A DNA stretch of 64,000 nucleotides from positions 669-64,668 of the forward strand of contig DATIXL010000138.1 of NCBI GenBank assembly GCA_035518615.1. Reading direction: 5' to 3'. Numbering within the stretch: position 1 is the stretch's first letter; each line of letters starts with the position of its first letter. Shown here in pieces: positions 2,424 to 38,084 of this stretch. Below the pieces are notes generated by a model. That model saw only the letters and a list, made by a program, of their open reading frames with translations. It did not search any database and had not been told where the DNA came from. The translations under genes were made by a program, and so were the position numbers. This stretch comes from Terriglobales bacterium. Lineage in GTDB: Bacteria; Acidobacteriota; Terriglobia; Acidiferrales; UBA7541.

Positions 2424-2490
2424 CCTGATTAGTCGGGTTCCCGGAATAGTTCCTCCCAGCTCTCACTTGGACGGTTTCGCCGTTAACCAG
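2424..2490. repeat. Degenerate 67-bp junction repeat, copy A
   Basis: Matches copy C at 16/19 in the left box and 21/26 in the right box, with an identical 22-nt spacer length. Confidence 0.75.
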
Positions 2491-2968
2491 GGCCAGAGTG
2501 AGGCATAGCGTTCTTCCGTGTGGTCGCAGCCTCTACTTTGTAAACCTCAATCTCGATGGGATACATGTCCATGTGGCCGTATTTGCCGTCAGTCTTGATT
2601 TTCCCGACAAGCACAACATCGAGAGGCACTCTCCACTTCAGATTCGAGACTTTCTTCCGCACTTTGCGCGGTGTCCGAGATTCCCATCGCTCATCAAACT
2701 CAACCCATAACCTCATCGGAAAAGGCGCTGGGCAGGCCGGTGAGTTAATCACGGATTTTTCAAAATCCGTTTCGTAGACGGCCTGCACTCGAACCATCTT
2801 ATTTTTGAATTTGTCTGAATGCTGAAGAATGTCGCAGTAGGCGACGGTCTGGACGCTAGCAACAACTTGATTTGTAACTGCTCCAGCCCCTGTGCTCTGG
2901 GCTTGAATAGACTTGCCACAAAGAGAGCCTAGCATCAACACGGCAAGTAGAGAGCGGAAAGGGTGCAT
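2483..2968 (-). CDS. Secreted hypothetical protein (possible OB-fold-like domain)
   Basis: Signal peptide (MHPFRSLLAVLMLGSLCGKSIQA), then VAYCDIL...KMVRVQAVYETDFE. Alternative start at 2986. Confidence 0.7.
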   Translation of the reverse strand: MHPFRSLLAVLMLGSLCGKSIQAQSTGAGAVTNQVVASVQTVAYCDILQHSDKFKNKMVRVQAVYETDFEKSVINSPACPAPFPMRLWVEFDERWESRTPRKVRKKVSNLKWRVPLDVVLVGKIKTDGKYGHMDMYPIEIEVYKVEAATTRKNAMPHSGPG

Positions 2969-3010
2969 CGCGCGCAATGATAGCACTTGAGGACAAATCG
3001 GCGCTCAAGT

Positions 3011-3077
3011 CCCGATTTGTCGGCTTACCTTCCATCTTGGGGCAAGTATGTACTTGGGCGGTTTGCGCGTTTACCGG
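3011..3077. repeat. Degenerate 67-bp junction repeat, copy B
   Basis: 57/67 nt identical to copy C, ungapped. Confidence 0.85.
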
Positions 3078-3198
3078 GACCTGGCGCGACTTCTGCCATA
3101 ACTTCCGAGTTGCCGACAATCCGTCGAGTATCAGGGTGGGTCACTTCCACGAGGAGCGTGTTACACGTTCCACCGACCAGCGAAGGTCTACACTGGCG

Positions 3199-4311
3199 TC
3201 ACACGACCGCGACCTTGACGTTGTAGATCGGGGGCAGCGAATCGAACAGGCAGTCCCACTGCTCACCACCCTCTCTCCCGATCCACAGCTGACCGGTCGT
3301 CGTGCCGAAGTAGAGTGCAGGCGCCTTGAGCCGATCGATGTCCATCGCGTCGCGCAGGACGGTGAAGTAGCTCTGCTTCTTCGGCAATCCACGTGCAACC
3401 CGGCTCCACGACTCGCCGCCATTCTCGCTGCGCCAAACCGCTGGCGCGGCACTGGGACAGGAGCGCGTCGCCCCCTCAAGGGGCACGACGTATACCGTAT
3501 CGGCGTCGTGCGGGTGGACCACGATAGGAAAGCCGAAGTCCGACGGCAATCCCTTGGCGATCGACCGCCACGAGCGGCCATAGTCGTCGCTGCGTAGTAC
3601 ACCAATGTCCGGCCGGGGCCCGCCCGGCCCCGTCCAATCTGCCCATCCGCCGTGGTTCTGCATGTAGAGCCGACCGGGCGCGTCGTCGTGCCGCGCGATC
3701 TTGTGCACGCACTGACCGAACTCGGGATAGGGGTCGGGTGCGAAGCCGGCGCCGACGCCTTGATTGGACGCCCTGAATGTTTCGCCACCGTCCTCACTCA
3801 AATAGTGGCCGCCCGTTGAGATTCCCAAGTGCACGCGATTGCCGTCGCGAATGATGGTGTGCATGCAAAGCCCGCCATTGCCGGGTTGCCACTTGCGCGC
3901 GTGATCGTGGTTGCTAATACCAGGCACGAGGTCCCACGAATCGCCACCGTCATGGCTTCTGAACAAGGATGCCGGCTCGACGCCGCACCATAGCTCCTTC
4001 TTGCCACCACCGGCTTCAAGTGCCCAGATGTTGACGAGCGCGCGTCCGTCGTCTTTGGGGAACGCTGGCGCCGATTTCGTCTCCGCAAAGCTTTTCCCCA
4101 TGTTCGTCGAACGCAGCACTTTCATGCCGAAAAAAGGATTGCAGCTCGAAGCATAGAGGCGCGGTGTTCCGCGGGTGTCGATCAGCGTGGAGTATACGGG
4201 GACGCCCGGGCCAAAGGGCCCGCGCAGAGCGAAGCTGCGCCTCGGCTTCGCGGCATCCGCGACGAACACACCCTTTTTGGTGCCGATGGTGAGAATGATT
4301 CGATCCGCCAT
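3199..4311 (-). CDS. BNR/Asp-box beta-propeller protein (exo-alpha-sialidase/glycosyl hydrolase-like)
   Basis: Repeated Asp-box motifs: RSTNMGKSF, RSHDGGDSW, LSEDGGETF, RSDDYGRSW, RSENGGESW. Confidence 0.88.
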   Translation of the reverse strand: MADRIILTIGTKKGVFVADAAKPRRSFALRGPFGPGVPVYSTLIDTRGTPRLYASSCNPFFGMKVLRSTNMGKSFAETKSAPAFPKDDGRALVNIWALEAGGGKKELWCGVEPASLFRSHDGGDSWDLVPGISNHDHARKWQPGNGGLCMHTIIRDGNRVHLGISTGGHYLSEDGGETFRASNQGVGAGFAPDPYPEFGQCVHKIARHDDAPGRLYMQNHGGWADWTGPGGPRPDIGVLRSDDYGRSWRSIAKGLPSDFGFPIVVHPHDADTVYVVPLEGATRSCPSAAPAVWRSENGGESWSRVARGLPKKQSYFTVLRDAMDIDRLKAPALYFGTTTGQLWIGREGGEQWDCLFDSLPPIYNVKVAVV

Positions 4312-4313
4312 CT

Positions 4314-4601
4314 TTAGCCTCCTGAAACCGCCGGCAGGATCGTGACCACGTCCCCCGCCGCCAGCGTCGTGTCAACGCCGTTGAGGTCGCGCACATTGTC
4401 AGAGTTCACGAACATGTTCAGGTGCCGGCGTAACGTACCCGTTTCGTCACAGACATTGCGATACAAAGCAGCTTGGTTCCTCTGGAGGTCCTCAAGTGCG
4501 GCGCGCACGGTGTGTGCCGAGATCGAGAGTTGCGCTGCGCCGGCACAGTACGTGCGCAGCGGACCTGGGACATGAATCGTGATGGCCGGCGCCGAGCCCA
4601 T
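4314..4601 (-). CDS. MoaD/ThiS-family ubiquitin-like sulfur carrier protein
   Basis: ITIHVPGPLR...LRRHLNMFVN...VTILPAVSGG with C-terminal GG. The stop is 2 nt before the propeller gene start. Alternative start at 4634. Confidence 0.9.
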   Translation of the reverse strand: MGSAPAITIHVPGPLRTYCAGAAQLSISAHTVRAALEDLQRNQAALYRNVCDETGTLRRHLNMFVNSDNVRDLNGVDTTLAAGDVVTILPAVSGG

Positions 4602-4751
4602 ACTGTGAAACTTATCACTGCCAGTTGGGACCATGCAACCAACGCGATTGCAGACTGGGATCTGGCTCTACAGCTGATGTCCTGTAGAAGTGAATCAAGT
4701 CGCCATCCGCTGGCGGTTAAGTCCTGACTTACGGGCAACTCGGGCGTAGCG

Positions 4752-4818
4752 CCTGATTTTTCGGGTTGCCTTCCATCTTCGGGCTGGTATGAACTTGGGC
4801 GGTTTGCCCGTTGACCGG
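4752..4818. repeat. Degenerate 67-bp junction repeat, copy C
   Basis: CCTGATTTTTCGGGTTGCC-N22-ACTTGGGCGGTTTGCCCGTTGACCGG; homologous to copies A and B. Confidence 0.85.
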
Positions 4819-5005
4819 GCGGTGGCCGAAAGAATTTGTTTCGCTGTTCACGCGAACTGCGCCCGGACCGAAGGAGGGGGAGCCATCTTAACCCTTCCAA
4901 CGCCGAAAGGATGAAGGTTGGCACTCGCGGTAAGCTCAGGGTATATATCCATGAAGCGATTTCGGTGGTGGTGAACCACGAACCGCGGGGAGAGGTTCAG
5001 AACCC

Positions 5006-5425
5006 ATGAGCGTACAAGAACAAATCAAGAAGTATATCGCCAGCCAACTGGAGCCAAAACGCAGCGACCTGCAAGAGTTGCATCGGCTCACGCTTCAAGT
5101 GTCGCCCGAATGCAAATTATGGTTCTTCGATGGCAAGGACAGCAAAGATCATACTGTTTCCAATCCTACGATTGGATATGGATTTCACACAATAAAATAT
5201 GCCAATGGAAAAAGCAGAGAGTTTTTTCGAATTGGCGTGAGCGGAAACAAGACCGGAATCTCCGTCTATATTCTTGGCCTCAAAGATAAGAAGTACCTGG
5301 CCAAAACGTATGGGAAAAAACTGGGCAAGGCGAGCGTGACCGGATATTGCATTCGCTTTAAAGCTCTAAAGGATATAAACCTCGATACGCTGGAAGCGGC
5401 TATACGACATGGACTTGCAGCTTAG
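5006..5425 (+). CDS. DUF1801 (YdhG-like) domain protein
   Basis: NPTIGYG...KTGISVYILG...LGKASVTGYCIRFK pattern. Visibly AT-richer than its neighbours. Confidence 0.8.
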   Translation: MSVQEQIKKYIASQLEPKRSDLQELHRLTLQVSPECKLWFFDGKDSKDHTVSNPTIGYGFHTIKYANGKSREFFRIGVSGNKTGISVYILGLKDKKYLAKTYGKKLGKASVTGYCIRFKALKDINLDTLEAAIRHGLAA

Positions 5426-5640
5426 AATGAAAAAGGCAAGCTGATGAAATCATTCGAATGTTCAAGGCAAGCAGTGGTCGACGTAAAGGCGCTCCAGCAT
5501 ACGACCCCTAACCGGACAGGCGCCTGCAAGATTCAAATGGGCGGCAGAGCCGAGCACCAGGCGCGAAGCATTGGCAAATGAGGGGCTTGGGGAACCGGCA
5601 AGAGAGGAATTGAATGGCGCAAAAGGGCCAGGAGGAACCG

Positions 5641-38007: not shown

Positions 38008-38084
38008 AGGCCCGTAGCTCAGTTGGTTAGAGCGCTACCTTGACACGGTAGAGGTCTGGGGTTCGAGTCCCCACGGGCCTACCA
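38008..38084 (+). tRNA. tRNA-Val (GAC)
   Basis: Acceptor stem AGGCCCG/CGGGCCT, D-arm AGCTCAGTTGGTTAGAGC, anticodon stem CTACC/GGTAG with loop TTGACAC, T-loop GGTTCGAGTCC, encoded CCA. Confidence 0.97.

Follow-up and report, generated by a model that had tools for sequence, protein, structure and literature searches.

Conserved palindromic repeats as candidate recombination or insertion sites at the junctions of gene modules in Acidobacteriota

Three copies of a 67-bp repeat lie between small groups of genes in a 64,000-nucleotide stretch of DNA from a Terriglobales bacterium (GenBank assembly GCA_035518615.1, contig DATIXL010000138.1, positions 669 to 64,668 of the forward strand; this whole stretch is called the window below), and the question that they raise is what such repeats do at these borders. 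A first-pass annotation, made from the window alone, had offered two answers: they might be recombination sites of an unrecognised gene-cassette system, or a conserved coding module repeatedly left at insertion junctions. Comparison with related loci leads us to lean towards an answer close to the first, namely that the repeats are site-specific recombination or insertion sites at the junctions of mobile gene modules in a tandem array, integron-like but without an integron integrase. The repeats form a family and lie in arrays; homology between loci breaks off at the tetranucleotide CGTT, and elements of the IS91 and IS110/IS1111 families are inserted in the repeats at fixed sites and in fixed orientation.

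The repeats of the window, at 2424-2490 (copy A), 3011-3077 (copy B) and 4752-4818 (copy C), all on the + strand, are where they had been annotated. Their right box, ACTTGGRCGGTTTSSSCGTTNACC, has exactly three matches in the 64 kb (2465-2488, 3052-3075 and 4793-4816, all on the + strand) and none in 100 dinucleotide-preserving shuffles of the window; the left box has three matches at the corresponding positions against 0.77 expected. A nucleotide hidden Markov model (HMM) built from the three copies recovers just those three in the window (E 1e-17 to 4e-16), the next match being at E = 0.6. Copy number is therefore low and local, with all three copies within 2.4 kb.

The HMM scan of relatives that had been proposed as a check did bring further copies to light. 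When one genome per species was scanned with the right-box pattern, 13 loci were obtained, about ten of them genuine, with one locus per genome; nearly all of the genuine ones are in metagenome-assembled genomes (MAGs) labelled Acidobacteriota, Acidoferrales, Acidiferrum or Angelobacter. The same pattern gave at least 118 further loci in metagenomes, and the iterated HMM found at least 171 copies in at least 98 genome or metagenome loci, mostly with an Acidobacteriota label (L-numbers denote the loci retrieved, X-numbers metagenome runs). No match to copy B was found in a plasmid collection. One 5-kb contig, L001, is binned as 'Candidatus Saccharimonadales'; it is 100% identical to part of the repeat-bearing metagenome contig L103 and is probably mis-binned.

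On the + strand the site reads CCYGRTWAGTCGSN-AAACCGGAM-AAGT, a loop, and ACTT-GGACGGTTT-SNGCGTT|NAYCAGG. The aligned copies give the longer consensus YYAAST-CCYGRTWA-GTCGSN-AAACCGGAM-AAGT, loop, ACTT-GGACGGTTT-SNGCGTT-NAYCAGG-ASYTKG. This polarity (…GCGTT|NACCAGG) is the natural one, and the minus-strand reading of the repeat in the first-pass annotation has to be reversed. The loop is about 12-25 nt, with some 30-40 nt more in a few copies. A spacer of exactly 22 nt, reported for the three window copies, is found there and does not extend to the family, in which the core CCTG..CAGG spans 59-73 nt (about 85-100 nt with conserved flanks) and some loops carry insertions. Likewise, the common end point of homology reported for the three copies holds only roughly, as the family consensus runs about 8-10 nt further on each side (YYAAST before CCYG, ASYTKG after CAGG), to about 2415-2499, 3002-3086 and 4743-4827 for copies A, B and C. 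CGTT, at 2481-2484, 3068-3071 and 4809-4812, is the sole fully invariant block in an alignment of 51 copies.

The site is an imperfect inverted repeat whose arms differ in conserved ways. The invariant GTT is faced by A, G and T, so that 48 of the 51 copies have the pairs A-T, G·T and T·G, and GGAC opposes GGAC, with a tandem G·A mismatch in about half of the copies. In a 31-pair model 67.9% of the cells are paired, as compared with 30-40% when the partner column is slid. Column shuffles give 66.4%, and 14 of 500 shuffles reach 67.9%. Pairing is thus barely above that of the column shuffles: it is the consensus sequence that is palindromic, with little contributed by compensatory change. RNAalifold predicted no consensus structure over the aligned copies. 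Long blocks of sequence are conserved between species.

Arrays of up to nine copies in 7.9 kb were found (L044), with six copies in L127 and five each in L098 and L006. Neighbouring copies are co-oriented in 67 cases and opposed in five, at a median spacing of about 650 bp, most gaps being 325 to about 1,300 bp. Almost all intervals contain a single open reading frame (ORF), 92-400 aa long, that takes up 65-100% of the interval. Whichever strand the ORF is on, it ends close to a repeat, the stop codon being 0-50 nt away and often inside, and its start is typically 10-130 nt from the other repeat. The contents are diverse: 83 in-array proteins match 65 Pfam families, none with more than three members, among them kinases, cytochromes, peptidases, hydrolases, DUFs and PEP-CTERM proteins.

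The window has two such intervals. Module 1 (2485-3071), which runs between the GTTs of A and B, holds one gene, encoding a secreted protein of 161 aa without a Pfam match (2483-2968, minus strand). TTA at 2483-2485 in copy A is the complement of the TAA stop of this gene, which the minus-strand GGTTAAC contains, just as had been noted. Module 2 (3072-4812), between the GTTs of B and C, holds two minus-strand genes, for a BNR/Sortilin-type beta-propeller (3199-4311) and a ThiS/MoaD-like protein (4314-4634). The annotated order C-[moaD + propeller]-B-[secreted protein]-A is correct, with genes at 4634-4314, 4311-3199 and 2968-2483.

Two further patterns were noticed around the right arm. In L002, L004, L005, L009, L074, L156 and L166, a repeat is followed at 45-90 nt by the start of a large gene for a Ser/Thr kinase of about 880-965 aa that carries a PD40 beta-propeller; at the same kinase gene in L004, L005, L009 and L012 the right arm is identical, while the left arm and the upstream content are different. 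Tandem triple right-arm-like motifs with a spacing of about 85 nt (ACTTCCGGTTTGCCCGTTATAC … CACTTGGCCGGTTTGCGCGTTAACCAGG … CACTTCCCGAATTGTTTCCGAGTTGCTTAC) occur in multiple copies with several different left flanks; their sequence is present in L026, L036, L040, L049, L051, L062, L077, L080, L101, L112 and L122.

Evidence that the intervals may move as modules comes from the points at which homology between loci breaks off. L109 and L131 share 699 nt at 99.3% identity, comprising an ORF together with a complete repeat, loop included, and on the right they diverge after GCGTT(T/A)ACCAGGA. A mobile unit with terminal inverted repeats (right arm-ORF-left arm) was ruled out, as this shared module includes a whole repeat. 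The pairs L126/L100 and L041/L038 are identical from CGTT onward and have a different preceding arm. In the soil metagenomes X8-X10 and the wetland metagenome X2, different right arms (…ACATGGACGAGATCA, …CTTCGACGATAACCCG and …CTTCTCCGATTTTCCG) meet the common sequence at 3067-3069, that is, at CG|TT of copy B, and a contig of X9 tracks copy C up to 4812, the last T of GTT, and then continues as AACGGGACTTGAGAG. Contigs from X8-X10 that are at least 88-90% alike span the ThiS-propeller pair and DUF1801 and do not cover 1800-2969; therefore the content left of B differs among relatives. The joint 3123→4800 of a contig from X1, a skip of 1,676 nt, was not used, its one side being only 23 nt long.

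The 161-aa secreted protein tells a similar story. Its 62 relatives are spread over four or more unrelated neighbourhoods. L152 is an array of at least six co-oriented copies beside a suf operon; there, and in L150, the homologue has a repeat on either side in the geometry seen in the window, and the downstream repeat overlaps the stop codon. L148 and L154 also have homologues and carry no repeats. Variation of modules between strains, which the first-pass annotation had asked for, is thus seen as modules in different contexts among relatives and is not seen in the window's own population (see below).

Two observations on module 2 stand apart from these boundaries. The ThiS/MoaD-like and BNR-propeller pair (3199-4634) is found at 90% identity or more in many soil metagenomes (runs holding about 14% of the query words), with flanks that differ directly outside the genes. 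The segment 3069-3122, the roughly 50 nt that follow the GTT of B, occurs in many copies in soil metagenomes unrelated to one another's flanks there, with a depth that peaks at 90-200 in X8 and different sequence on either side; its 3' part (ACTTCCGAGTTGCCGAC) resembles an inverted partial repeat arm. It is absent from the other retrieved loci.

The same tetranucleotide is the target of a very abundant IS91-family element of 2.5 kb, in which a gene for a 288-aa XerA/IntI-like tyrosine recombinase is followed by one for an IS91 Y2 HUH transposase (438-439 bits on NF033538). Against NF040815, 'site-specific tyrosine recombinase/integron integrase', the recombinase reaches 208 bits (the cut-off is 220); against TIGR02249 it matches in two pieces that give 186 bits. 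L150 and L151 are 99.9% identical and form an empty/filled pair: L151 has a 2,490-bp insertion of the element at GCGCGTTA|ATCAAG of the repeat, and only CGTTA is shared at its ends. The same element, at 81-84% amino-acid identity, is flanked in L100 by GGTCGTT| and |AACCGGGAC. In L100 and 17 further loci, wherever the flank is available, the left end of the element, (W)GGACGTAGCCGCCCGG, follows a repeat ending …SNGCGTT, the left flanks ending in GTT and one in GTA; the right end, …CATCCGGTAAAGCTCTAACGTT, is followed by WAYCRGG in 8/8 right flanks. There are about 13 distinct insertion sites in relatives, all in one orientation, and none in the window. Homologues of the recombinase number more than 7,834 proteins at E ≤ 1e-30, the top 120 being 85-94% identical, and on 19 further contigs the recombinase gene is always followed by the Y2 gene.

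The ends of the element resemble the terIS/oriIS pattern of IS91. One subterminal palindrome, GCCGCC-CG-GCGGCGG, is present on the left. On the right, arms of 17 nt (GCTTTACCGGACGCGCG … CGCGCATYCGGTAAAGC) form a palindrome with a core like the inner arms of the repeat, and CGTT follows. IS91 itself has terIS and oriIS palindromes and inserts beside a specific tetranucleotide without target duplication, and one-ended transposition makes up 1-14% of its events (PMC13181058).

Other mobile elements are attracted to the repeats as well. Transposases of the IS110 family (DEDD_Tnp_IS110 and Transposase_20) were found at 15 of 98 repeat-bearing loci, as against none of 33 repeat-free loci. The lineage in L009 and L013 shows the organisation of IS1111 (PMC11187229), with subterminal inverted repeats of 12 bp, GAGAAGGCCGGT, and some 285 nt of non-coding sequence downstream; the element is positioned directly after …GCGTTNACCAG, with the junction …ACCAG|. 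Other IS110 lineages are inserted in the left arm at …TWAG|TCGG (L013, L098 and L004), and here too an empty and a filled allele are available, L044 and L098 being 99.9% identical save for the insertion at …GATTAG|TCGG. That the repeat is part of the bridge-RNA region of an IS110 element was ruled out, as no transposase lies near most copies and alleles with an empty site were found.

Three more enzymes were met at or around the loci. A 316-aa Xer-like tyrosine recombinase recurs near repeats (L150:4555-5505, L156:2881-3831, L025:1608-1721); it abuts a half repeat with the left arm only in L150 and lies directly upstream of the element with the IS91 recombinase in L156. A Xer-like recombinase encoded beside a repeat in L030 was considered as the cognate enzyme and ruled out, since its homologues lie at the ends of regions resembling type IV secretion system (T4SS) loci or integrative and conjugative elements (ICE) without repeats. 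In L012, a gene for a 490-aa reverse transcriptase (RVT_1; 4115-5587) is directly upstream of a repeat with a 24-nt insertion; judging from the RVT_1 domain, it may be of the group II intron type, recalling group IIC-attC introns.

How, then, might the modules move? The breakpoint is at or within CGTT; the part of a repeat up to GTT belongs to the left module and NAYCAGG… starts the right one. The likely partners are the enzymes of the IS91-family element, which we infer to act on the cargo modules in trans. As a first option, its tyrosine recombinase would carry out exchange between two co-oriented CGTT cores, by which a circle is excised and then re-inserted, comparable to the GIsul2 integrase that mobilises the ISCR-related CR2-sul2 units (PMC9376610). 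As a second, rolling-circle or one-ended transposition would start or end at hairpin+CGTT signals. Each inserted unit would end in a new hairpin+CGTT, and insertions would for this reason stack head to tail, which would explain both the co-orientation of the repeats and their indifference to the direction of the cargo genes. A bolder version of this proposal is that soil Acidobacteriota possess a second, independently evolved cassette platform, unrelated to IntI/attC, in which conserved palindromes of about 70-100 bp with an invariant CGTT exchange point allow cassettes to be captured, stacked and exchanged in trans by the IS91-family tyrosine recombinase and/or the Y2 HUH transposase; we put this forward tentatively, as a possibility that may well prove wrong.

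Several observations weigh against the reading of the repeats as junction sites of mobile modules. First, ten wetland-metagenome contigs that are 99.7-100% identical to the window show no gain or loss of a module. Secondly, no IS91 element or tyrosine recombinase was found in the window or in the extra 6.8 kb or so to its left, the window having been probed by tblastn with IntI1 and its ORFs not all domain-scanned. Thirdly, the left end of the element, GGACGTAGCC, was not found elsewhere, and the cargo modules are without it; therefore they are not simple two-ended non-autonomous copies. Fourthly, the left boundary of the module shared by L109 and L131 is within the preceding right arm, about 14 nt before GTT, and some breakpoints between orthologous loci are in the left arm, of which insertions of IS elements account for a part only. 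Fifthly, the left box of a module pairs no better with the start of its own module, the end of the previous repeat, than with the same repeat or a random one (9.6, 9.2 and 9.15 of 15), and so there is no positive signature of circular intermediates. In addition, the ORFs of the intervals show no preferred direction relative to the repeat (25 on the same strand, 28 on the opposite one), a limit on any cassette reading, and many of the loci are short metagenome contigs retrieved with a pattern biased to the right arm. The claim of cassette recombination sites is supported at the level of the family, by its arrays, shared modules, CGTT breaks and three kinds of mobile element; it does not extend to gain or loss of modules in the window's own population, nor to canonical attC sites.

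An alternative is that the repeats are intergenic palindromes of the repetitive extragenic palindromic (REP) or terminator type, with a structural or regulatory role for the host or a selfish one, and favoured as a landing pad by insertion sequences, in a variable island built otherwise. REP sequences are the classical targets of IS110/IS1111 elements (PMC11187229), the repeats lie just past stop codons on either strand, as bidirectional terminators do, and the scarcity of covariation in their pairing, as well as the position of some copies 45-90 nt upstream of large kinase genes, would suit such a role. We nevertheless regard it as unlikely. The local copy number is low, with one strict-pattern locus per species genome; no T/U tract follows the stem; a 67:5 co-orientation regardless of gene direction would not be expected; homology breaks at a single invariant tetranucleotide; and the listing of the 25 commonest Pfam families in 189 array and flank proteins does not include Y1_Tnp, the RAYT family.

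In classical integrons, the IS1111-attC group and group IIC-attC introns parasitise attC sites. The repeats could likewise be true attC sites in a cluster of attC sites lacking integrases (CALIN), with IntI encoded elsewhere and the IS91- and IS1111-type elements being merely parasites of attC. The likeness is considerable. attC sites are imperfect palindromes of about 57-141 bp, a range that includes the core and the flanked length of the repeats, and the co-oriented arrays, the single ORF per interval and the beginning of the site at or in a stop codon are all attC-like. So is an exchange point at GTT near the 3' end, by which the last bases of the site belong to the next module: homology and insertion boundaries are at or within CGTT(W), in agreement with G|TT of the R' box of attC, the exact phosphodiester bond not being resolvable from sequence. 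One end of an attC site is a known target of IS1111-family elements (PMC11187229), and one end of the repeats is likewise parasitised by elements of the IS1111 type. Chromosomal attC sites exist in Acidobacteria (PMC8352920).

There are also differences. The attC boxes RYYYAAC and GTTRRRY are not both present, for GTT is invariant in GCGTTNACC and faces A, G and T, so that AGT replaces AAC; on the other strand AAC is present and GTT is not, which leaves one R-box triplet per strand. attC sites conserve structure over sequence, while the repeats, strongly alike between species and paired hardly better than their shuffles, do the opposite. The repeat consensus is unlike the start of the published Acidobacteria attC model, which begins GCCUAAC-AACUC-GUUGAAGC (PMC8352920). 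Unlike the cassettes of integron arrays, the cargo ORFs run in either direction. No IntI-like protein was found in about 105 loci and their flanks, by tblastn with an IntI1 sequence as probe and checks of the matches against NCBIfam and Pfam, and neither attI nor Pc was found at the repeat loci. The tyrosine recombinases that were found are Xer-like, score 114-193 bits on TIGR02249 (cut-off 265) and are without the extra domain of IntI. The repeats are not canonical attC sites, and it is quite improbable that they belong to a CALIN.

A cis-regulatory or small RNA (a 5'-UTR element, for example) or a conserved peptide module is very improbable indeed, for although copies B and C are upstream of minus-strand genes, copy B, the only one with favourable single-sequence folding, folds better than its own shuffles (z = -4.2), and a minus-strand frame is open in all three copies, the repeats have no Rfam match at the gathering threshold or at E ≤ 10, show neither a consensus structure nor more than weak covariation, and are oriented at random to genes, with core lengths in all three mod-3 classes and conservation without a 3-nt periodicity. 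The second answer of the first-pass annotation, a coding module at insertion junctions, fails for the last two reasons, and because copies B and C are outside genes; the open frame that it had pointed to exists and is not coding.

We return to the repeats as probable junction sites of mobile modules, and to the remaining features of the window. The array reaches past the window start, as shown by a degenerate fourth copy (Z) at L138:14736-14790, about 0.45 kb before position 1, with a recognisable right arm only and 26 nt past the serpin stop; L138 continues 6.8 kb beyond the window start. In + orientation the order is Z-[serpin, IS110 fragment, 319-aa gene]-A-[secreted protein]-B-[propeller, ThiS]-C. 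The segment left of A (1-2484), bounded on the left by Z, contains the serpin gene (minus strand), which runs off the window start, a gene for a 319-aa protein without a Pfam match (1452-2411, + strand) and a truncated DEDD transposase of the IS110 family, reduced to its N-terminal domain (1006-1398, + strand). The statement that the window holds no recombinase has to be qualified by this last gene, even though the tblastn search with IntI1 gave no match anywhere in the window, whose ORFs were not all domain-scanned. Right of copy C are two DUF1801 genes and a gene for a TonB-dependent receptor. Beside copy C, a 36-nt stretch (4841-4876, + strand) matches 966-1001, the sequence immediately before the truncated transposase gene, at 81% identity; the local score is 37, and shuffles give 16.2 ± 2.4 with a maximum of 25. 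This stretch is probably the remnant of an IS110-type left end, and its recurrence suggests that an old IS110-type insertion next to C was later mostly deleted. A tRNA gene at 38008-38081, the sole Rfam match of the window, is unrelated to the repeats.

To our knowledge, no well-understood system other than integrons stacks promoter-independent gene cassettes at short structured sites. If our reading is right, a cassette array with different sites and without IntI would mean that platforms of this kind arose on more than one occasion. The tyrosine recombinase of a subgroup of IS91 elements, so far unexplained, would gain a role, and a route of gene flux in Acidobacteriota would be indicated; the array loci come from this phylum, and relatives of these loci occur in many metagenomes from soils and wetlands. 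With the repeat model and the CGTT junction, accessory modules can be delimited in acidobacterial MAGs, the assemblies of which often end there.

No prior description of this repeat family was found in the literature searched, and it is best placed by comparison with known systems other than integrons. REP sequences with their Y1 RAYT transposases are short palindromes of 20-40 nt, dispersed in high copy number, whereas the repeats here are 59-73 nt or more, few and local. The IS1111-attC group and the REP-targeting IS110/IS1111 elements, guided by seekRNA or bridge RNA, share with the present loci DEDD transposases at fixed positions and orientations in a repeat, but they explain insertions into the repeat and not the repeat itself or the cargo modules. 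IS91 and ISCR elements come closer. The element inside the repeats encodes an IS91 transposase, has a subterminal palindrome on the left and a larger one on the right, abuts a specific tetranucleotide after a palindrome and makes no target duplication beyond the shared CGTT(W); in addition, elements of the IS91 type carry neighbouring genes along. Tandem arrays of cargo modules are, as far as we know, not a described feature of IS91. The present element differs, too, in that the target is a conserved palindrome of about 70 bp and not a tetranucleotide alone, that the tetranucleotide is CGTT and not CTTG, GTTC or GTCC, and that the element has a tyrosine recombinase in addition, with cargo modules that are without its left end. 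The pdif modules of Acinetobacter plasmids are similar in another respect, being gene modules bounded by short sites on which a tyrosine recombinase acts in trans; pdif sites are 28 bp long and alternate in orientation, whereas the repeats described here are about 70-100 bp, co-oriented and found in a different host phylum.

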